Virus record (IMG/VR): IMGVR_UViG_2875713109_000001
From: a virus
Taxonomy: Duplodnaviria > Heunggongvirae > Uroviricota > Caudoviricetes
Direction: 5' to 3' (one strand)
DNA: 64,000 bases
Under the pieces are notes generated by a model, which saw nothing but the letters and a program-made list of their open reading frames with translations, was not told the origin of the DNA and did no database searches. Position 1 is the stretch's first letter, and each line of letters begins with the position of its first letter. The translations under genes were made by a program, and so were the position numbers. Below are positions 3,752-62,643 of this stretch, one piece after another.

Positions 3752-4032
3752 CCCAGAAAAACAAAAACCGGCGAGAAGTTACCACGAGAACGGAAAGTAA
3801 ACAAGAATACTCCCATTGACTTATATCAAATAATCAACTTTTTATAAGCTATCCCTAACTTATTGTGTATAGCTGAAAAGTCAGAGATAAGTTCACCATC
3901 TGCATTATTTCTTAAGTTAATAGTTTATTGCTAACTTAATTTATGTATCGACTATTGATATCCATCTTAAAGTAACAATATCCCTCTGCATTATTTTTCA
4001 TCACAAATAATACATCTATTGCACTACGCTCA

Positions 4033-4049
4033 CCTGCTCTAATAAATTT
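4033..4049 (+). promoter_or_regulatory. C1 repressor operator-like site upstream of immI
   Basis: cctgctctaataaattt, 15/17 match to P1 C1 operator consensus ATTGCTCTAATAAATTT. Confidence 0.55.
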
Positions 4050-4199
4050 GTATTTTTAAGTCGCGAATGCTATCTTTTCGCATCATATTGACCTTTTAAT
4101 CGTTCAGGCTTATAGTTTCGCCGTCGTAGCAAATTCTGCGACCAGGTTTGACAGCCTGAATGATTGTGCGGACAACCGCAGATTTCCGATATTGCGGTA

Positions 4200-4295
4200 T
4201 TTTTGTGTCCGTTAAACCGCGTTACGCCCAAATTATGGTGGGGCGTGATGGGGAGGCTTCGGCCTGCTGGTTTCACAATCGCCAGTCTGTCAACC
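4200..4295 (+). ncRNA. c4: candidate c4-type antisense RNA (boundaries approximate)
   Basis: Between operator and icd; contains cacaatc complementary to gattgtg repeated at 4162-4168 and at 4346-4352 overlapping the icd Shine-Dalgarno; GC hairpin ggcttcggcc. Confidence 0.35.
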
Positions 4296-4363
4296 CTGTC
4301 ACGTCCTGCCACCTGTTTGACAGCGGGTAGCAGGTTGTTAAACCTGATTGTGAGGCCGTAACT

Positions 4364-4585
4364 ATGGTTAATGCCAATCCTTGCGCACGCCCAGAATTCA
4401 TCTGGCGTTTCTATTCCTGTAAAAAACACCACTATCACTTCGTTATCGCAGCAACTGAAGACGAAGCACGCTCTCAATTGCCTGATGGCCCCTGCATTTT
4501 TACTGCCCGTTTTTCAACTAACTCGCGCAATTCACTTAGTTACTGGAGCCTCCCCTTCTCTGCCGACGTTCAGGGGGGTTTATGA
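4364..4585 (+). CDS. icd: Icd-like cell-division interference protein
   Basis: 73-aa ORF, ATG with SD tgagg 8 nt upstream; stop overlaps ant start (ATGA); position between c4-like region and ant as in P1 immI. Confidence 0.65.
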   Translation: MVNANPCARPEFIWRFYSCKKHHYHFVIAATEDEARSQLPDGPCIFTARFSTNSRNSLSYWSLPFSADVQGGL

Positions 4586-6610: not shown

Positions 6611-7456
6611 ATGCTGGCTAAAGTCACTTTCCTGAGCTGTATAACGATGAGCGATTTTACTTTTTCTGGCTATGAATTGGCTTGCTTTGTAACACACTCC
6701 GGTCTATCCCGTAGCGCCGGGCATATCCTGTCGCAATGTGCAAATCTCGCGGCAACAACCAGTGAATACTTCATTCACAAGCCTCACCGCTTGATCGCGG
6801 CAGAAACTGGTTATAGCCAATCAACCGTCGTTCGTGCATTCCGTGAAGCTGTAAACAAAGGAATCCTGTCTGTAGAGATTGTTATCGGCGATCACCGTGA
6901 ACGTCGCGCTAACCTGTACCGGTTTACACCATCCTTTTTGGCCTACGCACAACAAGCCAAAAATGCGCTGATTGAAAGCAAATTAAAGATCTCTTCAGCC
7001 GCAACCAAGGTTAAAGCTGTTCTCGCTAAGACATTGGCTTTATTTAATTTTTTATCCACACCCCCATGTCAAAATGATACCCCCTCCCCCTGTCAGGATG
7101 ACGTGGCAATAAAGAATAAGAAGTCACAAGTTAAAAAAACAAAAAGATCAGTTTCCGGCGGTGCCGGAACGACCAGACTCAAAAAATTGACTTCATGGAT
7201 CGCTGAGGCAAAAGCAAAGGCTGACAATCTGCGGTTATCCAAAAAACGCGCTCAAAAACATGAGTTCAAGCAGAAAGTAGAGGCGGCAGCGCGGAAATAT
7301 GCTTACCTGAAGAACAAGCGTTCTCCTGATATTGACGGGGTATCAAACTTCGATAATTTGCCGCATTGCATGACGGTAAACGAAGCTCTTAATGCGGTTT
7401 TAGCCAAAAATAAAGATAACGAACAATGGGGTATACCGGCAGGATTCAGAGGGTAA
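6611..7456 (+). CDS. repL: lytic replication protein RepL
   Basis: 281-aa ORF immediately downstream of kilA, matching the P1 kilA-repL lytic replicon arrangement. Confidence 0.7.
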   Translation: MLAKVTFLSCITMSDFTFSGYELACFVTHSGLSRSAGHILSQCANLAATTSEYFIHKPHRLIAAETGYSQSTVVRAFREAVNKGILSVEIVIGDHRERRANLYRFTPSFLAYAQQAKNALIESKLKISSAATKVKAVLAKTLALFNFLSTPPCQNDTPSPCQDDVAIKNKKSQVKKTKRSVSGGAGTTRLKKLTSWIAEAKAKADNLRLSKKRAQKHEFKQKVEAAARKYAYLKNKRSPDIDGVSNFDNLPHCMTVNEALNAVLAKNKDNEQWGIPAGFRG

Positions 7457-7624
7457 TGAATTGTTCTAATTATAACCATGCATACTTTCAACGCCTCTAG
7501 TTTGCCATGAGGCAAACTCATAGGCGTCCTGGTAAGAGGGCACTGTTGCCAAAACTGGACGTCCCATTATTGCAATTAATAAACAACTAACGGACAATTC
7601 TACCTAACAATAAGTGGAGTTAAC

Positions 7625-8329
7625 ATGTTGAACCGAAGAACATTTAATGTATTCTGCGATGAATCCTGTCACCTACTAAATGATCATAATAAAGTCATGG
7701 TATTGGGTGCGCTTTGGTGCCCTGGCACTATCACAAAAAAAATTGCTAGAGACATCAAGGAATTAAAATTAAAACACAATCTAAAACCTGATTTCGAAAT
7801 CAAGTGGACTAAAGTATCTGCGTCCAAGGTTGAATTTTACTTAGATGTCGTAGATTACTTCTTCAGCAACCCAGCATTGCGCTTTAGAGGTGTTGTTGTT
7901 CCTGATAAAGAGCAACTGGACCATGCTCGATTCCATCAAGATCATAATACTTTCTATTATAAGATGTTTTTTTATGTCTTAAAAAACATAATAGAAAGTA
8001 ACAACACATACAATATCTACCTAGATATAAAAGATACTTTAGGTATTGAAAAAATTGAGAAATTAAGAGGAGTTCTTCACAATGATCGCTATGATTACAA
8101 TCATGAGTCGATAAACAGAATTCAACATATACGATCTCATGAAGTGCAACAATTGCAGCTAACGGATCTTTTCATTGGTGCGTTAGGCTACGTTCATCGA
8201 GGAATGAATAGCAACGCGGGAAAAATCCAAGTCATAAACAGGATAAAATCACATACAAACAGGGATTTACTAAAAAGCACTCTTCCAACAGAAAGTAAAT
8301 TTAATATTTTCGTGTGGGAGGCTCGCTGA
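7625..8329 (+). CDS. DUF3800-like protein, accessory
   Basis: 234 aa; N-terminal FCDES and C-terminal LQLTDLFIGAL resemble DUF3800 signature; ATG with SD ggag; AT-rich coding DNA. Confidence 0.5.
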   Translation: MLNRRTFNVFCDESCHLLNDHNKVMVLGALWCPGTITKKIARDIKELKLKHNLKPDFEIKWTKVSASKVEFYLDVVDYFFSNPALRFRGVVVPDKEQLDHARFHQDHNTFYYKMFFYVLKNIIESNNTYNIYLDIKDTLGIEKIEKLRGVLHNDRYDYNHESINRIQHIRSHEVQQLQLTDLFIGALGYVHRGMNSNAGKIQVINRIKSHTNRDLLKSTLPTESKFNIFVWEAR

Positions 8330-8793
8330 TGCTTCAAATGCCAGATTTATTGTACTTCAATGGAAGTTGGCAAGAGTATATAGACGATGTATATTATGTT
8401 GTCAGAGAAGACATTTTAATCTCTAATATAACGTTTAAGGGTCTCCCTGTTCGGTTACGTTATTCACCGGAATATGATGGGAAAGAGTTCGGATTTTGGC
8501 ATTTAGTATCAGAGGGAAAAATAGAAGAAGAACGAATACCTGATCTTGAACGGTGTAAGCGGATCCGCTGGATCGCGCATATGATAAGGAATTATAACCA
8601 TTCCGATATATCATGTTGGTCTGAAAGACGAGGACCAACTGAAGAATGGGTAATCTGGAACGAGTGTGAAAACTACGTTGTTGTGCTATCCGCACGTAGA
8701 GACTATTGGCTTCTTAAAACAGCCTATGTTGTAACCTATAACAGTAAAATCAGAACACTCAAACAAAGCAGAAAAAGAGCGCTTGGGACATAA
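8329..8793 (+). CDS. hypothetical protein, translationally coupled partner of the DUF3800-like gene
   Basis: ATG overlaps upstream stop (TGATG), SD gggagg 7 nt upstream; contains RIRWIAH (R-x5-H) motif; alternative GTG start at 8314. Confidence 0.45.
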   Translation: MLQMPDLLYFNGSWQEYIDDVYYVVREDILISNITFKGLPVRLRYSPEYDGKEFGFWHLVSEGKIEEERIPDLERCKRIRWIAHMIRNYNHSDISCWSERRGPTEEWVIWNECENYVVVLSARRDYWLLKTAYVVTYNSKIRTLKQSRKRALGT

Positions 8794-42211: not shown

Positions 42212-42421
42212 ATGGCTATCGCTGCAAGTTACACCATGCATCTCTATTGTGATTGCCTCCAGTGTACAGATGGCAAATATAAGTCGCCAGACTTCGGTGA
42301 GTATATAGGTACGTCATGGGCTGGCTGTGCAAAAGAGGCGCGCAAGGATGGCTGGCGAATAAGCAAAGACAAAACGCGTGCTTTTGCGCCCGGGCATAAA
42401 GTTTTGAGGATTAACAAATGA
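42212..42421 (+). CDS. hypothetical Cys-rich small protein
   Basis: 69 aa with CDCLQC; ATG with strong SD aaaggagag. Confidence 0.35.
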   Translation: MAIAASYTMHLYCDCLQCTDGKYKSPDFGEYIGTSWAGCAKEARKDGWRISKDKTRAFAPGHKVLRINK

Positions 42422-43134
42422 CCACTATAACCAAAGAGCGACTGCTGACAATCAAGCAGTGGCGCGAAACATACGGACCTGGTAGCAACGTTGTACTGCC
42501 AGCAGAAGAAGCGGAAGAACTGGCACGAATTGCGCTGGCATCGCTGGAAGCAGATCCAGTTGCTTATATTTTCAAACATCCGGCCGGGAAATTATTCTGG
42601 GCTTTAACGGATGAAAGCAATAAAGAGCAAGCGGACGTTATTCCTGTTTATGCTGCCGCGCCTGCGTCGGTTGTGCCGGATAATGCATCAGAGCCTCTTG
42701 CTTATGCTTACAAAGAGCTTACGCCTGAGATTATGCGCAACCATTTAGCTGTATTCGAGCGATATGGAATAGCCCCAAACGATAGCTCTACCACAATTCA
42801 GGCACTGCGAATCGCGCTGGATGGCATAGAGCGGAGCGACGCCATGCTTCATGGTGCCGAACCTGTAAGCCAAACTTACAAGTTGAACCAGCTATCGGGC
42901 AACTCTCCGGCAACTCCGGATGGTTGGATAAGCTGTAGTGAGCGAATGCCGAATACCAAAACAGCCGTTCTTGTTGCCGTGGAGTTTGACAGGAAAGGTG
43001 ACTGGCGAATGAAATGGGCTACTTACATCCCCGGGCATCCTGACGCTAATGATGGGTGGATAATTCCTGGTGCGTCGTGGAAACCGTCACACTGGATGCC
43101 GCTACCAGAACCGCCGCAGGAGGTGAATCAATGA
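42418..43134 (+). CDS. DUF551-like protein
   Basis: C-terminal SHWMPLPEPP resembles DUF551 signature seen in prophage ea-type genes. Confidence 0.45.
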   Translation: MTTITKERLLTIKQWRETYGPGSNVVLPAEEAEELARIALASLEADPVAYIFKHPAGKLFWALTDESNKEQADVIPVYAAAPASVVPDNASEPLAYAYKELTPEIMRNHLAVFERYGIAPNDSSTTIQALRIALDGIERSDAMLHGAEPVSQTYKLNQLSGNSPATPDGWISCSERMPNTKTAVLVAVEFDRKGDWRMKWATYIPGHPDANDGWIIPGASWKPSHWMPLPEPPQEVNQ

Positions 43135-43216
43135 GCTGGCCTGAAGCATTCACCACGGTAGGAATTGTGATGGCGGCAGCACTGGGTTTGTATTCAATTT
43201 GTCGCTGGTGGTAACG

Positions 43217-43450
43217 ATGGGAAAAATAACTTTTGTAGTCGAATTTGAGGATGGCAAAGAGCCACCTGTTAGCGCCAATCTTGATGTTGCTGGTGGCAGG
43301 CTGGTTTCGGTTCTATTTGGTGATTACCGCGACGACTTCTTTCAGCCTGAAGAAGTTGATGTAGTGCGAGAAGCATTAAACGAGCTAAGTGTTGATAACG
43401 ATGATGCTCATGCGGAAATCATCAAAAAAATGGAACTGCTAACTCACTAA
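43217..43450 (+). CDS. hypothetical protein
   Basis: ATG at 43217 with SD ggtgg; ORF-track start 43199 is TTG. Confidence 0.35.
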   Translation: MGKITFVVEFEDGKEPPVSANLDVAGGRLVSVLFGDYRDDFFQPEEVDVVREALNELSVDNDDAHAEIIKKMELLTH

Positions 43451-43628
43451 ATTATCAATTATGGTGCTATCACCTACGACACCGAGAGAAAATTTATAAT
43501 GTCAAAAGTAAATGTTTTGATTTTTTCAGCAATTGTTGGCTTTGGTTTTACTGCCGGAGTGCAGATTTATATTGCGTGGGAAAAAATCATCAACTACGCA
43601 TGGAGTTGTTTTATTAAGTGAGGTAAGT

Positions 43629-43922
43629 ATGTGGAGAGGTAATAGTCATGGCAAAAGCCAGATGATACTTACCGAATATCAGTTTGACCATAAAACCAAT
43701 AAATCACGTTCAGTATATTTGCTTCGGCACAATAGCCGCGTAAGGAATACCGTGCTGGAGCAAAATCTGACTGTTGAAATGGATAATTACGGGGGCTTCA
43801 AGCCAACAATTTCGCTTGATGATTTTCCTCGTGGTTTAAGCGAAAGAGAAGCAATGCTGAAATTAGCAGAATGGCTACAAAGATTAAGCATTGCTATTGA
43901 AGATAACTGGTCTGAACCTTAA
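43629..43922 (+). CDS. hypothetical protein
   Basis: ATG at 43629 with SD gaggt; upstream part of track ORF lacks RBS. Confidence 0.35.
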   Translation: MWRGNSHGKSQMILTEYQFDHKTNKSRSVYLLRHNSRVRNTVLEQNLTVEMDNYGGFKPTISLDDFPRGLSEREAMLKLAEWLQRLSIAIEDNWSEP

Positions 43923-43928
43923 ATTTAT

Positions 43929-44303
43929 ATGATGACACTAAAACATTTTCTTGACCGCCCATTATGGGCGGCAGCCGCAGGCTATGACTTTAATTATATG
44001 GATTGCATGTCTTATACCGCCAATGCATACGACCATTCCTTCAGTCTGCTGTTTAATTCTTTAAGAATATTGCCGCAAACAGAAGTTGGAGAGCTTCATT
44101 TATGGCTATTGGGCTTTATCGCGGCTGGAGTTGGTATTGCTGTATGGCCTTTTATTTTCTGGCTGGTGGCTGTTGTAGTGTGGTTTAAGTGCAAGACGTA
44201 CCGGAAAAAGTATTTCTTAGGTGATGGAATGACTGATATTGCCAAAATGAACATTGAAAAATGGACTAAGGAATGTGAAAAGAAATGGCGCAAAAAGAAA
44301 TGA
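43929..44303 (+). CDS. membrane protein
   Basis: 124 aa; hydrophobic helix pair LWLLGFIAAGVGIAVWPFIFWLVAVVVWF then Lys-rich tail. Confidence 0.4.
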   Translation: MMTLKHFLDRPLWAAAAGYDFNYMDCMSYTANAYDHSFSLLFNSLRILPQTEVGELHLWLLGFIAAGVGIAVWPFIFWLVAVVVWFKCKTYRKKYFLGDGMTDIAKMNIEKWTKECEKKWRKKK

Positions 44304-44944
44304 CTACTCTAACGACAGCATACTTACAGCAATTGGTATTTTTTGCAGGCGAGGCTACTTGTCATCCTGACGCAAACTATTTATTGGAATTTGAGAGGTT
44401 AGCGTCACCCGGTATCGTTCTGGAACTGGCCCAACAGGTGCTGGCCTTAAGACAAAAAGAGCAACATGAAAGTAATACGTGTAGATTGAACTTTGAGCAG
44501 TGGCTGGAACAGCAACGCGGAAAAATCGATGTGGACTGTGGTTGTGTGTCTACTGAAACATTCATGCACTGGCTGCGGGTAGCTTACGAGGCTGGCAACT
44601 ATCCGGATATTCCGGATAGTTCGGTGCCAGGGCCAGGAAAGGGCGTCACCGGTGAACGTATCCGCATTAAGCCGCATGTTTATCGCGAACTGGTTAACCG
44701 TCTCCACGATACAGCGATCAAGTGTGCTGGCACCCAGCAATTACGAGAAAGAATTAGCCGTGTTTTGGGCGACGTTATTAAGCCAGACCATCATAAACAA
44801 GCCGAGAAAAGTGGCCTGGAAAGGTGTCACCTTGAGGCGGCATTAAACATTAACCCGGGGCATACGCTTGGCATTATTGATGCACTATTGGTTCATAAGA
44901 TGGCCAGGGCTTTATTGCCGCTGGTAGGGGGCAATGACAACTAG
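44285..44944 (+). CDS. hypothetical protein (prophage ea-type)
   Basis: 219-aa ORF with ATG start. Confidence 0.4.
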   Translation: MAQKEMTTLTTAYLQQLVFFAGEATCHPDANYLLEFERLASPGIVLELAQQVLALRQKEQHESNTCRLNFEQWLEQQRGKIDVDCGCVSTETFMHWLRVAYEAGNYPDIPDSSVPGPGKGVTGERIRIKPHVYRELVNRLHDTAIKCAGTQQLRERISRVLGDVIKPDHHKQAEKSGLERCHLEAALNINPGHTLGIIDALLVHKMARALLPLVGGNDN

Positions 44945-45028
44945 GAAAAAATCGCATTACTGGTGGCAAAGCCATAACTACTGATACAATATTTCTAGGT
45001 TAAAGATCTGGCATTAGGTAGAGATAGC

Positions 45029-45493
45029 ATGTTTCTTCATATCAATCCCGATTGGGCATCAGCTATTGCGGCATTTGGGTCAGCAATAGCTGCTTTTATT
45101 AGTTTGCGCACAAGTAAAAATCTTGGATTATTCGATAAGGAAAAATTTTATAGTGAAGCATTGATAAACTTTGCTGATAGGGCAAATAAAATAGCAACAG
45201 GAAAAGCTGGATCAGACTGGGATGTTAATGACGCAAGTAATATAATTCTTTCACTAAATGCCGCAAAAGAAACTATTGAAAGTGCGCCAAAACCTATTCG
45301 AGAGAAACTAAAACAATATTACAAACATAATCTTTGCCATGAGATCATAACTGAATTAGAGGCTCACTCTCCCCCAGATTCAGTAATTGTAAGAGAACCA
45401 TCAGAGTATGAAGGCAAGATCATGGGATTGTGGGATGAGATTAAAATATTTCTGGGTTATACAGTGGTATCAGAAGCAGACCTTGAAGATTAA
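45029..45493 (+). CDS. hypothetical membrane-anchored protein, AT-rich accessory gene
   Basis: 154 aa; N-terminal hydrophobic helix WASAIAAFGSAIAAFISL; SD aggtagaga; visibly AT-rich relative to flanks. Confidence 0.45.
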   Translation: MFLHINPDWASAIAAFGSAIAAFISLRTSKNLGLFDKEKFYSEALINFADRANKIATGKAGSDWDVNDASNIILSLNAAKETIESAPKPIREKLKQYYKHNLCHEIITELEAHSPPDSVIVREPSEYEGKIMGLWDEIKIFLGYTVVSEADLED

Positions 45494-45600
45494 AGTTTGG
45501 TGTGACCACATCATTTCATCAATGATGCCCGAAGTGGGGAGTTTGACGATTGTCCGGTGATTTAAGCTGCAAAGTGCTGGTGCTTTATGCTTGTGAAGTT

Positions 45601-45630
45601 TATAATTGTGTACACATAACGAGTACACGA
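45601..45630 (+). promoter_or_regulatory. phd-doc promoter/operator
   Basis: -10 tataat followed by palindromic tgtgtacaca and gagtacac sites just upstream of phd. Confidence 0.5.
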
Positions 45631-45637
45631 GGTGTTT

Positions 45638-45859
45638 ATGCAATCCATTAACTTCCGTACCGCACGCGGCAACCTTAGCGAAGTGCTCAATAATGTTGAA
45701 GCAGGGGAAGAGGTTGAAATCACCCGCAGAGGCCGTGAGCCAGCAGTAATTGTCAGCAAGGCTACTTTTGAAACCTACAAAAAAGCGGCGCTGGATGCTG
45801 AATTTGCATCCCTGTTTGACACCCTGGACTCCACCAACAAGGAACTGGTTAACCGATAA
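45638..45859 (+). CDS. phd: antitoxin Phd
   Basis: 73 aa [39 protein letters not shown]... matches P1 Phd as recalled; ORF-track GTG start 45632 is 2 codons upstream. Confidence 0.85.
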
Positions 45860-46239
45860 TGAGGCATATATCACCGGAAGAACTTATTGCGCTTCATGAT
45901 GCGAATATAAACCGCTACGGCGGCCTGCCGGGAATGTCAGATCCGGGTAGGGCTGAGGCCATTATCGGGAGAGTTCAGGCCAGAGTTGCCTACGAAGAGA
46001 TCACCGACCTTTTCGAAGTCTCCGCCACCTACCTGGTGGCTACAGCGAGAGGGCATATATTCAATGATGCCAATAAGCGTACCGCGCTAAACAGTGCGCT
46101 GCTATTTCTACGCCGTAACGGGGTGCAGGTATTTGATTCACCAGAACTGGCAGACCTTACCGTAGGGGCTGCGACCGGAGAGATATCTGTATCTACTGTC
46201 GCCGCCACGTTACGTAGATTGTATGGTTCTGCGGAGTAG
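45859..46239 (+). CDS. doc: toxin Doc
   Basis: 126 aa, Fic-type core ([11 protein letters not shown]); ATG overlaps phd stop. Confidence 0.85.
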
Positions 46240-57636: not shown

Positions 57637-60549
57637 TTATGGTAATGCGCTCTTGATTAACTGATAAATATCATCATTAGCAAACTGCGTTTTGAATTCA
57701 ACTTTAACAGACTGACTTATTTGATTGAAAAGCGCCTGGGCATGTTCAATTTTCTTTTTTTCTTCAAGCCGTAAACTATCCTTACTATCTACGTTTTTTG
57801 TTTCAATGATAAAGTTAAGATAATCACCTTCTGCTGTTTTTACAACATAAGCAAAATCGGGTGAGTAAGTGTATCCACCAGCTACCGGGATCTTAATAGA
57901 ATTCTTCGGTATCTTTGAAAAAACAACAACAGACTGGATCTCTCTATCTGTTATATTACGCCTTTCAAGCTCTGAATCATAAAAAACCTCTTCAAAAAGA
58001 TAAGTATCTAATGGTGCTTTTGAATTATCCTGTAATACACCAAGATCACTTGATAATACCTCGTCTAGAGGCTTACCATCAGCATTTGTGAACTTTGTGG
58101 GATGAATTGAACCCGAAATCAAATTATATCCGAGGCTGAATTTGTTAAACGAATTGTTCAACAAATACTTACTAAAACCAGATTTAATTTTTCTGATTGT
58201 TTGAATATTCAGGTATTCAGTGATATTAATAGTGTCTTTTATATCACAAAAAACTTTATGTAAAGTATCGTGTTTAACAAAAATAGTCTGTGATAAGTTA
58301 TCGAGAAACTCTCGATAACTCATTGTGTTTAGCTTAGCAAAGTCATCGTCATCACTAACAATGCTTTTCGACATTGCCATATCATTGTGGATGTAAATTT
58401 TATCAATGCGAGTATGAACGCCTGATTTGGTAAATCGTTCTGTTTCTTCGAGCATGAATGACTTGAAAATGGATAAAAACTCATTTTCACTGTTTATTTT
58501 GTACTCAATCACCGCTTTTTGATTGATTAATTCCCATAGTTCTTTCAGCTCACTGAACTTACCAACACGCATTTTAGTGCGTCTTTTTCCATCAGTAGCT
58601 TTTTTGATTTTACCTGGTTTCACTCCTATAGGGAATGCTGCTGGATATTTGGATTTTAAGCGGCTGTAGGCATCTGAATCTTTGAAATTATCATTTTCAT
58701 CAATGATTTCATCATTGAAAAGTTCATTCATTAGTGCTCTGGATGAAAGCTCAGGATACTGAGCCCTGATTTGTTCCTTAAGCTCTTGAGTAAACTTACT
58801 TGGAACCCTTTCTTTGAAAGAACTCTCATTGACCTCTTTAACAAGTGAGTCAACAAAATCCTTTTCTGTAAAATCGACATAATATTTAAGGGTAAAATTG
58901 CGGTCTTTCACTCGACACATGTATTCATTCACAGGAAGACGCAAACCGCGCCCTACCTCTTGAAGCTTGGATGTGGTACTACCGCTCGAACGGAGCTTAC
59001 AGATCTGAAAGACATTAGGATTATCCCATCCCTCACGCAACGTCCATTTGGAGAAAATGAAACGACGTGGATTATCTAAAGACAGCAAAAGCTCTTTGTC
59101 ATGAAGGATTTCGTTGATTTCCTTCTCGATTTTATCATCCTTATCACTGTTATCTTTTGAAAAATAACCGCCATGAACGGAAGATATATCTTTAACTGTT
59201 TTTTCAAGATAGTTACTATAAAACTCATCTTTTTCTATTTTTAACAGTTCATTAGCTTCTGCCAAAACATATTCTTCGAACTTAGCTTTCAAACTTCCGG
59301 CAATATTATTACCGTCACGATAACCTTCAATATCATCAATAAAGAAAAGAGTAAGAGGCTTTATGCGTGGCCTTTGTGTCAGAAACTCTTTTTCTAACTT
59401 AAAGTGTTCTTTGATAGCTTTCCTCATCATGCTGTCAGCAAGTGTCTGATCGTAAGAATAGGGGTTTATTGAGCAACCAATTTTTAGCTCAATACCATTA
59501 CTCAACACTACTGTATTCTTGCCTAAGGCATCAAGAGTTAAATCGTGAATAGCACTATGTGTCTTAGATAGAGATTCACCTTTTGTTAACTTAAATAAAG
59601 TTTTCTTGTTATTTTCATTTAGCTCAAATGTAACTTCTTCCCCATCAGATTTAATGAACTTTAGGTTGGCGTCACCATCACCAACAATATCCTCAATGTA
59701 CGCATCAATACCTTTAACAAGGTCTTCATTAAATGCATCCACAGCTGTAAGTCGATAAACTAAATTCTTATAGCCTTCACTAAAGGTCGCACCGTAGCGG
59801 ATAATATATTGAGCATTAAACTTCTCTATATTTTCCCATGTCTTTTTACCAGTAGGAAATTTATGTGGTTCATCAATGATAATGAATGGTTTTACCGCAC
59901 CAAGAGCTGAAAAGGGAGAATCAAAATGATTGTCAAGCAAGCCAACATCATAAGTGGAATTTAAATTCTTAGAGTGAATCATTCCCGTGTTAATAACAAG
60001 AACGTGTATATATTTCTTATTGAAATTACTAGCTTCAACAAAATCATGTATAGCTTGAGGCATATACGATTTTGTGCTTTTACCGGCATTTTTCTGACTT
60101 TCAACAACGTAAGTCTTTATTTCACGCTCATAATCATCTCTAAAGTGTTCTTTTAACGCATCGCTTTTCAAAAAGTTCACTGTTCCAGCTTTGATCGATA
60201 GAGTAGGAACAATAATGATAAACTTATTAATGCCAAATGATTTGTTCAGATCAAAAATTGTTTTAGTGTAGGTATACGTTTTACCTGTACCTGTCTCCAT
60301 AGAAACATCGATTACGTTGCTTCCAGCATCGTAATTATTTTTTACATGTTCAATACCATTGAGTTCCTGAACTTTTTTTATATTTTTATAGTATTGCTGT
60401 TCAGTAAGCCGTAATTCTGGATTAACTAACAGGCGAATAGAAACATTATCCTCCTGATGAGATGTCGCGGAAACAAAAACGTTCATCACCGCATCGACAC
60501 CTGCTTTCTGATGCGGTAAGTTCTTTTCGAATGTGAACCCTTTTGACAT
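57637..60549 (-). CDS. res: type III restriction enzyme Res subunit
   Basis: 970 aa; helicase Walker A GTGKT and DEPH-box IIDEPHKF; AT-rich. Confidence 0.9.
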   Translation of the reverse strand: MSKGFTFEKNLPHQKAGVDAVMNVFVSATSHQEDNVSIRLLVNPELRLTEQQYYKNIKKVQELNGIEHVKNNYDAGSNVIDVSMETGTGKTYTYTKTIFDLNKSFGINKFIIIVPTLSIKAGTVNFLKSDALKEHFRDDYEREIKTYVVESQKNAGKSTKSYMPQAIHDFVEASNFNKKYIHVLVINTGMIHSKNLNSTYDVGLLDNHFDSPFSALGAVKPFIIIDEPHKFPTGKKTWENIEKFNAQYIIRYGATFSEGYKNLVYRLTAVDAFNEDLVKGIDAYIEDIVGDGDANLKFIKSDGEEVTFELNENNKKTLFKLTKGESLSKTHSAIHDLTLDALGKNTVVLSNGIELKIGCSINPYSYDQTLADSMMRKAIKEHFKLEKEFLTQRPRIKPLTLFFIDDIEGYRDGNNIAGSLKAKFEEYVLAEANELLKIEKDEFYSNYLEKTVKDISSVHGGYFSKDNSDKDDKIEKEINEILHDKELLLSLDNPRRFIFSKWTLREGWDNPNVFQICKLRSSGSTTSKLQEVGRGLRLPVNEYMCRVKDRNFTLKYYVDFTEKDFVDSLVKEVNESSFKERVPSKFTQELKEQIRAQYPELSSRALMNELFNDEIIDENDNFKDSDAYSRLKSKYPAAFPIGVKPGKIKKATDGKRRTKMRVGKFSELKELWELINQKAVIEYKINSENEFLSIFKSFMLEETERFTKSGVHTRIDKIYIHNDMAMSKSIVSDDDDFAKLNTMSYREFLDNLSQTIFVKHDTLHKVFCDIKDTINITEYLNIQTIRKIKSGFSKYLLNNSFNKFSLGYNLISGSIHPTKFTNADGKPLDEVLSSDLGVLQDNSKAPLDTYLFEEVFYDSELERRNITDREIQSVVVFSKIPKNSIKIPVAGGYTYSPDFAYVVKTAEGDYLNFIIETKNVDSKDSLRLEEKKKIEHAQALFNQISQSVKVEFKTQFANDDIYQLIKSALP

Positions 60550-60551
60550 GA

Positions 60552-62492
60552 TTAGTTCCTTACCACTAAATCTAACTCAATAGATTTTTTGTTAGCATAA
60601 CTTTTTAGCGCCTCATTAAGCTCCCTTTGTTTTGCACTTTCAAAGTTACAACCATAAAACACGACTTTGTTTGGGGCAAAATCTTCATCTGAATCCAGCT
60701 TTTGGAGCAACGCTTTCAATGCTTCGCTAGTAAAATTAGGTGCAATCAAATACAGACGGCCATTGCAAAAGTGTGCTGTATAGCCACTAAGATCAACATC
60801 TTCAATAGGTGTTGTTAACAAGCTACCATCATATACACACCATGTAGTCAATAGGGCATCATACTGTTCAGGCGTTAATACCGCATCATCAAAGAATGTA
60901 TGATTAGTGAGCGTAAGTTCAGACTCAACTTTTGCTCTAAAGTCATCAATAGTATGAATCACTTTGAAACCTATTTTAGCCGCATTATCACTTGTGGTTG
61001 TGCTTTTTTTAAATACCTCCTGTATCCTTTTTTTTGTTATTTCAAAAATAGATCTATAGCCAAGAGAATAGGCATTCTTTGTTTTATTTATAACTTCATC
61101 TTTTTGTATGCATATAAAATTCCTACAGCCTGAATCTTTTTCATTTAAATATGCAACAGCTTCTGCTGTCGTACCAGAGCCAGCAAAAAAGTCAAGAACT
61201 AATGAATCCTTTTTTGTTCCTATTTTTACAAGATCGGTTATAAGAGGAACAGGTTTTGGTCCTTCAAATAATTTTGCACCTAAAAGATTTTTAAGCTCAG
61301 TTGTCGCCGTGCTTGTACTATATTCAGGTTTATACCAAATTGATTTTGGCTTTTTAGTTGGTAGCTCTCCAAGAGCAGGCCGCTGTTTTTTATAGATATT
61401 TTTACCATCTTTTATATCTATTACTATTAGATTATAAAACTCATCATTTATTTTTTTCTTTCCCCACGACCATGAAAGCTCTTCACCCGTAGGGCTTACT
61501 GGGTAAAGTACATAGTCATCTTCGTTAAGAGGTTTATCATCATCTGTTACATAAACCTTATTTTCTGAATTGATGAATACCGGAAACCAACCTTTTGGTC
61601 TTGATTTTCTAGAAGCATCTTGGCCAGTACGCTTTAATGTATCAGCTCTTTTAAATAGCCCATATTCATCTTCATCCCACTCTTTTTCAACTTCACTTTC
61701 ATCAATATCGAATTGCCCCAAACTACAAACATCTTTGTTTTTAGCGTATACATATATATATTCATGCGTATCTGAAAAGCCAAAGTTATCATGATTGCCT
61801 TTGAGATTCATGATTGTAGGGAGTTTTGCAACAAAATTACCTTGCCCAAATACTTCGTCGCATAATAATCCCAACTGTTTATCTTCGTTATCGTCTATGG
61901 AGATGAATATTACTCCATCCTCTTTTAAAAGTTCACGTGCAATATAAAGACGAGGATAAATGAATGTCAGCCATGCACTATGACTGCTTGAACCCTTGGT
62001 GGTAAATTCAAGTATGCGGTTAGCCTCATCAAGCTCGATACCTGCCAGTTCAGAAAGCTGTTCTGGTGTAAACTTGCGATCATCGTTATAGACGAATCCA
62101 TCTTTACCCGTATTGTATGGTGGGTCAATGTAAATCATATTCACCTTTTCAGCATAAGCATTAACCATATGCTTCAATACTTCGAGGTTATCCCCTTTGA
62201 TTAACAGGTTTTGACTGTTCTTGTTCTCTTCTTGTTGGTTATGTGTTTTATCTTCTGCCAACAACGTTTTCGGTGGTAGATTGGCCAACAAACGGGCATA
62301 AGATTTACCCAGCCAGTTTAAACTGTATGATTCTTTAGAGAGTTCAACCTCCGATGCTCTAATAATCTCAAGCAATTTTTCTTGAATGAAGGCTCCGTTT
62401 TTATCAAAACACTGTGGGAAATTAGCTTTCAACACAGCCAGTTGCTTGCTGTTAGCCGTTTCTACTTCGGAAAAAATCGTTTCTTTTTTCAT
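60552..62492 (-). CDS. mod: type III modification methyltransferase Mod
   Basis: N6-adenine MTase motifs IYIDPPYNTG and FFAGSGTT; start set at MKKETIF to give 646 aa as recalled for EcoP1I Mod; ORF-track start 62513. Confidence 0.9.
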   Translation of the reverse strand: MKKETIFSEVETANSKQLAVLKANFPQCFDKNGAFIQEKLLEIIRASEVELSKESYSLNWLGKSYARLLANLPPKTLLAEDKTHNQQEENKNSQNLLIKGDNLEVLKHMVNAYAEKVNMIYIDPPYNTGKDGFVYNDDRKFTPEQLSELAGIELDEANRILEFTTKGSSSHSAWLTFIYPRLYIARELLKEDGVIFISIDDNEDKQLGLLCDEVFGQGNFVAKLPTIMNLKGNHDNFGFSDTHEYIYVYAKNKDVCSLGQFDIDESEVEKEWDEDEYGLFKRADTLKRTGQDASRKSRPKGWFPVFINSENKVYVTDDDKPLNEDDYVLYPVSPTGEELSWSWGKKKINDEFYNLIVIDIKDGKNIYKKQRPALGELPTKKPKSIWYKPEYSTSTATTELKNLLGAKLFEGPKPVPLITDLVKIGTKKDSLVLDFFAGSGTTAEAVAYLNEKDSGCRNFICIQKDEVINKTKNAYSLGYRSIFEITKKRIQEVFKKSTTTSDNAAKIGFKVIHTIDDFRAKVESELTLTNHTFFDDAVLTPEQYDALLTTWCVYDGSLLTTPIEDVDLSGYTAHFCNGRLYLIAPNFTSEALKALLQKLDSDEDFAPNKVVFYGCNFESAKQRELNEALKSYANKKSIELDLVVRN

Positions 62493-62643
62493 ATCCATTT
62501 TAAACCAGATCATTTAGCAACAAAGCGCCGCCTCCCCAGCCCGTTAGAGCCAGAAGTTGTGGCACTATCACTATCTATATGTTTGAAGAATCGTGCTTCT
62601 TTGAGCGATGCTCGGTGAGCAAACAGCCATAATTTGGGGAAGT

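Follow-up and report, generated by a model that had tools for sequence, protein, structure and literature searches.

A phrog_1779 gene in place of the hot-lxr-humD block upstream of phd-doc in a P1-like phage-plasmid

A horizontally acquired gene upstream of phd-doc

The virus record IMGVR_UViG_2875713109_000001 (Caudoviricetes), analysed here as one stretch of 64,000 nucleotides (the window), is that of a P1-like phage-plasmid, and directly upstream of its phd-doc module stands a gene for a protein of 154 amino acids (aa), located at 45029-45493 on the plus strand, which we call X. X was gained by horizontal transfer as accessory (cargo) DNA and sits in the pmgT-humD region, a known hypervariable region of P1-like phage-plasmids. 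The 570-bp AT-rich segment that carries it has displaced pmgV-upfMNO-hot-lxr-humD, leaving a humD stub and an intact phd-doc promoter. The X protein belongs to phrog_1779, a small, fast-diverging and selectively maintained family of temperate Enterobacterales phages. The features discussed are listed in Table 1.

The relation of the window to P1 is evident from a pattern search with the consensus of the P1 C1 operator, which matched 15 times (0.37 matches expected), and from its collinearity with P1 from pmgS/pap to phd-doc-pdcA-pdcB-lpa-pacA. The initial annotation, made from the sequence alone, had placed a gene of 154 aa, more AT-rich than its flanks, immediately upstream of phd-doc. Its position is confirmed, with phd starting at 45638, and so is its composition: X has a GC content of 0.363 (0.239 at third codon positions, GC3), and a profile in 300-bp steps gives 0.35-0.37 over X and 0.47-0.54 on both sides. 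Among sections of 465 bp across the window (mean 0.467, standard deviation 0.05), 6.5% match or undercut the GC content of X. X is thus AT-rich with respect to its flanks, yet the GC minimum of the window lies elsewhere, at 57.8-61 kb, where the content falls to 0.31.

The full-length protein is aligned by the phrog_1779 profile hidden Markov model (HMM) from residue 1 to 154 (profile positions 1-169 of 169) at E=1.5e-62 and 211.5 bits. This match, the existence of relatives of similar length and the ratio of non-synonymous to synonymous substitution rates (dN/dS) within the family, given below, identify X as a real gene rather than a chance open reading frame (ORF). The exact protein occurs on 622 contigs of a large protein collection, each time labelled "hypothetical protein". 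The claim of a good Shine-Dalgarno sequence stood in part: a Shine-Dalgarno-like stretch (AGGTAGAG) is present, of only moderate strength.

Most of X is bracketed by an 18-nt direct repeat, identical at 16/18 positions. The first copy (TACAATATTTCTAGGTTA, 44985-45002) overlaps the -10 of a promoter-like site and the second (TAAAATATTTCTGGGTTA, 45442-45459) falls within the 3' coding region of X; the repeat is probably due to chance in AT-rich DNA.

Table 1. Position in the window of gene X, its neighbours and associated sequence elements
Feature	Position	Strand	Description and evidence
C1 operator, equivalent of P1 OpmgT/Op88	40389..40405	+	16/17 match; head of the gene run that ends with X
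Upstream 219-aa gene, PmgU-like	44285..44944	+	PmgU homology in the C-terminal half (88%, 108 aa); PHROG matches
Foreign AT-rich segment, 570 bp	44926..45495	+	Not in P1/P7; blastn against P1 and L018
Promoter-like site GTGGCA-16 nt-(TG)TACAAT	44963..44990	+	Consensus scan, 9/12 plus TG; 39 nt 5' of the X ATG
Shine-Dalgarno-like stretch	45016..45023	+	Moderate; AGGT at -13..-10 and GAG at -8..-6, read from the sequence
X	45029..45493	+	ATG start, 154 aa; ORF call, PHROG match, family alignments, AF2 model, hydropathy and charge, dN/dS
Ala/Ser/Gly-rich hydrophobic helix, codons 9-26	45053..45106	+	Heptad repeat SAIAAFG-SAIAAFI-S; putative transmembrane anchor
humD 3' remnant	45496..45565	+	Without start codon; marks the right junction; blastn/tblastn against P1, junction alignment
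phd	45638..45859	+	Pfam PhdYeFM; 98.6% identical to P1 Phd
doc	45859..46239	+	Pfam Fic/DOC; 97.6% identical to P1 Doc

The foreign segment and its junctions

The junctions were mapped with blastn against P1 (NC_005856) and a canonical P1-like plasmid that has the same left flank (NZ_CP013030, L018). Nucleotide identity to these references ends at 44925 and restarts at about 45496, right after the stop codon of X. The same left flank is present in 438 plasmids, and in most of them divergence sets in at 44925/44926. Within the 570 bp between the junctions, the PmgU-like gene comes to its end (six codons and the stop codon), followed by an 84-bp spacer and the whole of X, so that the end of the upstream 219-aa gene, whose N-terminal half is novel, is supplied by foreign DNA.

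About 2.4 kb of P1 sequence has been swapped out, comprising the last 34 nt of pmgU, then pmgV, upfM/N/O, hot, lxr and all of humD but its last ~69 nt. In P1 and in canonical P1-like plasmids, the gap between pmgU and phd measures ~2.4 kb and holds seven or eight genes. The P1 annotation bears out the initial annotation in that hot, lxr and humD directly precede phd-doc in P1, and in the synteny comparison with P1 and P7, X was not found at this position, homology with both beginning at 45496. The last 17 codons of humD are left in the window (45512-45562) and are 94% identical to P1 HumD. Because this stub persists at the right junction, the arrangement with humD is the ancestral one; and as humD was truncated to a stub and ~2.4 kb were displaced, the event was a substitution and not a simple insertion. 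Homologues of hot, lxr, pmgV and upfMNO were found nowhere in the 64-kb window.

According to the P1 annotation, a LexA box and the late promoter LPhot fall in the displaced segment, and a search for a LexA box or a C1 operator within 44926-45495 gave no match. The promoter Pphd is kept downstream of X, its -10 box (TATAAT) mapping to 45601-45606. No convincing junction repeats flank the foreign segment, and the only match to an Rfam RNA in or near it was a sub-threshold one attributable to chance.

The displaced P1 block occupies the same slot as the X segment, downstream of pmgU and directly upstream of Pphd, but its products Lxr, PmgV and HumD are unrelated to X (hhalign probability <1%). 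That X could be a strongly diverged version of one of these three proteins was ruled out by the same comparison, with hhalign probabilities of 0.08-0.15% and E values of 0.4-0.63. The pmgT...humD interval is "variable region 8", one of eight hypervariable cargo regions associated with low GC in P1-like phage-plasmids (PMC9603915), and gene exchange between phage-plasmids and phages has been documented in general (PMC10879196).

Other P1-like genomes, those of phage phi456 (OR339795, L023) and vB_EcoM-673R5, lose homology to the window at a different place, ~45562, a short way 5' of Pphd, and phd of phi456 is adjoined by a putative restriction-modification gene. The phd-proximal boundary is therefore a recurrent recombination junction.

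The arrangement with X, carried for example by plasmid pS51_2 (NZ_CP015997), is rare. At the DNA level, no X was found in the INPHARED phage records, where P1, P7, SJ46, RCS47 and others align only from 45496. The full segment is present in nine of the 1159 PLSDB plasmids that match the phd-proximal part, from Escherichia coli, E. albertii and E. marmotae hosts, and X is intact and at least 97% identical among the plasmids of these three species. Complete E. coli genomes carry X in 10 cases out of 5426, all on plasmids of ~95-100 kb and none on the chromosome. A search for related loci with the X protein alone returned the same P1-like context only.

The phrog_1779 family

No function is assigned to phrog_1779 in PHROGs v4, and the relatives P0002, P0012, P0017, P0031 and P0040 match the same PHROG as X. 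The literature was searched for phrog_1779 and WP_001697568, which found nothing, and for the PhiR phage names, which found only a SNIPE preprint in which related PhiR phages serve as test phages. An exhaustive HMMER scan of 1.84 billion representative proteins yielded only 21 relatives of 101-288 aa (mostly 153-173 aa). A profile search of a 5.8-billion set yielded 25 clusters, and all those with a taxon label are from Enterobacterales (Escherichia, Cronobacter, Enterobacter, Citrobacter, Klebsiella). Beyond its own cluster, X shares no more than 25-37% identity with family members. The pairwise dN/dS within the family ranges from 0.12 to 0.25, which implies purifying selection on the phrog_1779 gene. 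Between two of the prophages (L012 and L024), the X homologues share 55% aa identity (dN/dS of ~0.18), as against 86% for the neighbouring homologue of theta; such faster divergence of X could stem from an arms-race interface or from the shuffling of cassettes.

The lambdoid members of the family have in common with X the length class (153-173 aa), the N-terminal hydrophobic helix, the RAN...DW...ANI and PPD motifs and an acidic D-DL-D tail. X differs from the other members in that it is the most AT-rich (GC3 0.24), has the least hydrophobic anchor and represents the sole lineage found on P1-like plasmids. One relative, P0012 (288 aa), has an N-terminal extension of 137 residues, without a Pfam match, which places several extra hydrophobic segments ahead of the usual anchor; this may reflect either fusion to the gene of an upstream membrane protein or a mis-called start.

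Predicted structure of the X protein

The N-terminal hydrophobic helix that had been read from the sequence was recovered as the sole hydrophobic segment of X, spanning residues 8-26 (DWASAIAAFGSAIAAFISL), with a borderline Kyte-Doolittle maximum of 1.49 over 19 residues. No other N-terminal block is as well conserved in the family, and its residues A19, A22 and S25 do not vary in the A2 alignment. Over 39 family members, the equivalent segment averages 1.91 and is flanked by 0.2 lysines plus arginines (K+R) on its N-terminal side and 3.6 on its C-terminal side, a bias from which the N-terminus is predicted to be short and periplasmic and the C-terminal domain to be cytoplasmic. X is predicted to be anchored in the inner membrane by a single pass (bitopic; N-out/C-in). 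The serines at positions i, i+7 and i+14 of the helix have a spacing compatible with helix-helix association.

Behind the anchor, the family alignments feature a conserved block, A-RAN...KG..DW.F.(D/Q)(A/F)ANI, in which W64 is invariant, as well as a PPD motif, W135 and F141. The C-terminus ends in a conserved acidic tail, (D/E)-x-D-L-x-D, which is EADLED in X and looks like a docking motif. X is acidic overall, with a net charge of -8, which makes a role in DNA binding unlikely. The AlphaFold2 (AF2) model computed with the family alignment is all-helical, the anchor helix being followed by a five-helix bundle (predicted local distance difference test, pLDDT, 70; predicted template modelling score, pTM, 0.63); a single-sequence model of X (pLDDT 43) was unusable. 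The acidic helical bundle of ~125 residues and the tail are predicted to face the cytoplasm and display no catalytic signature.

Genomic context of the relatives and linkage with hot

Outside P1-like plasmids, every relative examined resides in a lambdoid element, either a prophage or a phage-like plasmid region, and is co-directional with the early operon. The Cronobacter relatives are found in the distal part of the pL operon, between cIII/kil/recT and xis/int. Those of Enterobacter, Klebsiella, Citrobacter and the E. coli phage PhiR26_1 occupy the nin region (between O/P and Q), as do two relatives on plasmids, one of Enterobacter asburiae (NZ_CP083846) and one of E. coli (CP061260). An array of Ead/Ea22, DUF551, further genes, X and nin genes recurs in several lambdoid contexts, and the pmgT operon of the window presents the same kind of array, in which an Ead/Ea22-like gene is followed by DUF551 and then X. 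The family genes lie 4-11 GC points under their flanks in most contexts, and generally 4-9 points; the exceptions are the copy in the window, the most AT-rich, and the one in PhiR26_1, which is not lower. Searched with tblastn against phage records, a Klebsiella homologue found no match.

Eight lambdoid prophage contexts (L004, L008, L012, L015, L024, L026, L027 and L028) were searched with tblastn for hot. In six of the eight, a theta/Hot gene or remnant precedes X at a distance of 14-16 bp to ~130 bp. The theta homologue is of full length in L012 and L024, and near full length in L027 and L028, where no full-length gene is called at that position. It is frameshifted in L015, partial in L026 and reduced to a 23-aa trace in L004 and L008, and no trace was detected upstream of X in PhiR26_1 or in the window. 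The loci with hot, or its remnant, next to the phrog_1779 gene are L012 6730-7483, L024 3728-4480, L027 and L028 ~3752-4480, L015 ~6800-7480, L026 ~3756-4486 and L004 and L008 ~7907-8522. Judging from this distribution, hot and X look like a two-gene module of long standing, of which X survives when hot decays. In P1, hot sits in the very block that X displaces in the window.

Expression of X and the operon upstream

X is the last gene of an unbroken plus-strand run that starts behind the C1 operator at 40389-40405, and no convincing terminator was found inside this pmgT gene run or between the stop codon of X (45493) and phd. The foreign DNA stops exactly at the stop codon of X. In the Cronobacter prophages, a good intrinsic-terminator hairpin is located 18 nt past the stop codon of the homologue, and in PhiR26_1 the homologue is flanked by promoter-like and terminator-like sites; an alignment in search of an upstream element common to X and its homologues was uninformative. 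As X is co-directional with the C1-controlled pmgT operon and its relatives are in pL or nin, an early lytic accessory gene is no worse a description of it than a moron expressed in the lysogen. Early lytic expression under C1 control would be the default expectation, and expression in the lysogen is possible.

The pmgT operon itself has a mosaic make-up (40676-44583). Between an N-terminal part resembling PmgT (40584-41171; 47% identity with P1 PmgT) and a stretch with homology to the pmgT C-terminus and pmgU (44583-44947) come ~3.4 kb with lambdoid-type early genes, including members of phrog_3876, phrog_1258 and phrog_2638. The Ead/Ea22-like gene maps to 41134-41676 (by annotation of a near-identical plasmid) and DUF551 to 42418-43134 (Pfam). 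At 41849-42210, two tandem, translationally coupled ORFs specify small basic proteins of 58 and 62 aa, which have in common the opening residues MKNRKAK and, towards the C-terminus, a QNR-K motif. The two look like the outcome of a paralogous duplication, and 5' of the pair comes a third small ORF, rich in Arg (41676-41852).

A second AT-rich block (43300-44300; GC 0.36-0.42) is situated 5' of X. The 124-aa ORF at 43929-44303, of phrog_2638 (function not assigned), has a strongly hydrophobic central segment (LWLLGFIAAGVGIAVWPFIFWLVAVVVWF) and putatively encodes another membrane cargo protein of the same operon. Where GC drops to 0.31, two large adjoining ORFs of 970 and 653 aa occupy 57637-62513 on the minus strand; their size and position are as expected of res and mod, the P1-type genes of type III restriction-modification, which they may be.

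Discussion

In the explanation we favour, X would be transcribed last in the C1-repressed pmgT early operon, possibly also from a weak promoter of its own. Its product would be a non-enzymatic, membrane-tethered binding or oligomerising protein at work in phage-host or phage-phage conflict. It would act at the inner membrane, by exclusion or abortion of competing phages or else by sequestering a host factor, and independently of phd-doc. To this reading as a whole, an accessory cargo gene for a membrane-tethered conflict protein, we give somewhat less than an even chance, most of its weight being on the "accessory cargo, membrane-anchored" part; the role in conflict is our best guess. We regard as possible, with the balance clearly tipped against it, the wider proposal that phrog_1779 is an unrecognised single-gene, membrane-anchored conflict factor of temperate enterobacterial phages (for superinfection exclusion, abortive infection, or as a membrane-tethered decoy for a host defence or replication factor), which spread as "hot-X" and jumped from lambdoid nin or pL regions into P1-like phage-plasmids.

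Small inner-membrane proteins for superinfection exclusion or abortive infection are encoded by temperate and T-even phages, among them HK97 gp15, P22 SieA and T4 Imm/Sp. X would resemble these in its small size, membrane anchor, variable accessory region, deviant composition and rapid divergence, but no similarity in sequence or fold is demonstrable, and X is co-oriented with early operons. Early proteins of the phi29 p16.7 type have an N-terminal transmembrane helix and a cytoplasmic helical domain. With these, X would share the early-operon location and the succession of N-terminal anchor and cytoplasmic all-helical domain; it has no detectable homology to them and, at a net charge of -8, is strongly acidic.

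Several observations weigh against a conflict protein. The anchor helix of X is borderline as a transmembrane segment. No homology to any characterised protein was found: Pfam and NCBIfam gave no credible or consistent match for X and 22 family members, and PADLOC-DB v2.0.0 returned 0 families for X at E<=1 and scattered single matches to unrelated models across 22 family members. A sequence-profile search of the PDB with X found nothing below E=0.8, and fold searches (BFVD among them) retrieved only generic helical bundles and repeats. In the consensus scan, promoter-like sites were no more numerous than in shuffled sequence (3 found, 4.4 expected; 7 found, 9.4 expected). The co-orientation of X with early operons is atypical of prophage defence genes that need expression in the lysogen; PD-lambda-1, for one, is on the opposite strand in PhiR26_1.

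The initial annotation took X for a moron-type insertion. The foreign composition, the prophage-accessory family and the hypervariable region agree with this. The substitution of ~2.4 kb and the lack of a terminator between X and phd do not, and the candidate promoter is a single promoter-like site. That X is a classical lysogen-expressed moron, a unit of promoter, gene and terminator for lysogenic conversion, would overlap in function with the cargo and conflict reading and differ in expression. Its deviant base composition speaks for it, as do the 9/12 site with extended -10 in the imported DNA and the terminator and promoter signals around the Cronobacter and PhiR26_1 homologues. However, promoter-like sites are no commoner than in shuffles, the window has no terminator before phd with the foreign DNA ending at the X stop codon, the gene replaced others instead of inserting between otherwise adjacent genes, and its orientation is always that of the early operon; we consider a classical moron rather unlikely. 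A function tied to Hot (the theta homologue) and to the replisome or SOS machinery, in which X would modulate a replication or repair factor or tether it to the membrane, would account for the joint travel of X with hot and for its place in the hot-lxr-humD slot, and is suggested by the theta/Hot gene or remnant upstream of X in six of eight lambdoid contexts and by the P1 segment that X occupies, which held hot and humD. Yet shared descent of a two-gene module can account for the linkage, the acidic protein is devoid of a nucleic-acid-binding or polymerase-related signature, and X has remained whole in places where hot has suffered a frameshift or truncation or is missing (L015, L026, L004/L008, L003 and the window) and so does not need Hot; we hold such a function to be distinctly improbable.

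If X were a passenger without current function in the P1-like context, marking the scar of an event in which the loss of hot-lxr-humD was selected, one would understand why near-identical P1-like copies have a dN/dS of ~0.5-1.1 (from tiny substitution counts) and why the arrangement is in the minority, in 9/1159 plasmids. We give this little credence: across plasmids of three species the ORF is preserved intact at identities of 97% or more, the exact protein recurs on 622 contigs, the family-wide dN/dS is 0.12-0.25, and in several lineages X has outlasted the neighbouring hot. That X is an extra, third component of phd-doc or a regulator of it, or a holin-like lysis protein, would be consistent with the direct adjacency of X to phd-doc, with no terminator between, and with a single hydrophobic helix rich in small residues that could oligomerise. 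Synteny largely refutes both and makes them hardly tenable. No phd or doc was seen beside X homologues in the contexts examined outside P1-like plasmids, nor any neighbouring lysis cassette, the lambdoid copies being upstream of Q or in the pL operon, at least 3-4 kb away from holin and lysozyme. Downstream of X, the Pphd region of P1 has been kept, and phd-doc is present in full, with 97-99% identity to the module of P1, which functions with humD upstream instead of X.

For the most part, then, the arrival of X is ordinary cargo turnover in a known hotspot, from a catalogued but uncharacterised family. The exact junctions document gene flow between the early regions of lambdoid prophages and P1-like plasmids, in the course of which this lineage gave up from the sequenced window a block related to SOS and mutagenesis (humD, hot and lxr) in exchange for X. 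Only the hot-X linkage and the compact, testable architecture of the family go beyond the routine: the analysis defines a compact, conserved and fast-evolving single-gene family of membrane-anchored proteins (~155-173 aa), small enough for quick tests of exclusion, defence or host modulation and recurrently linked to hot.

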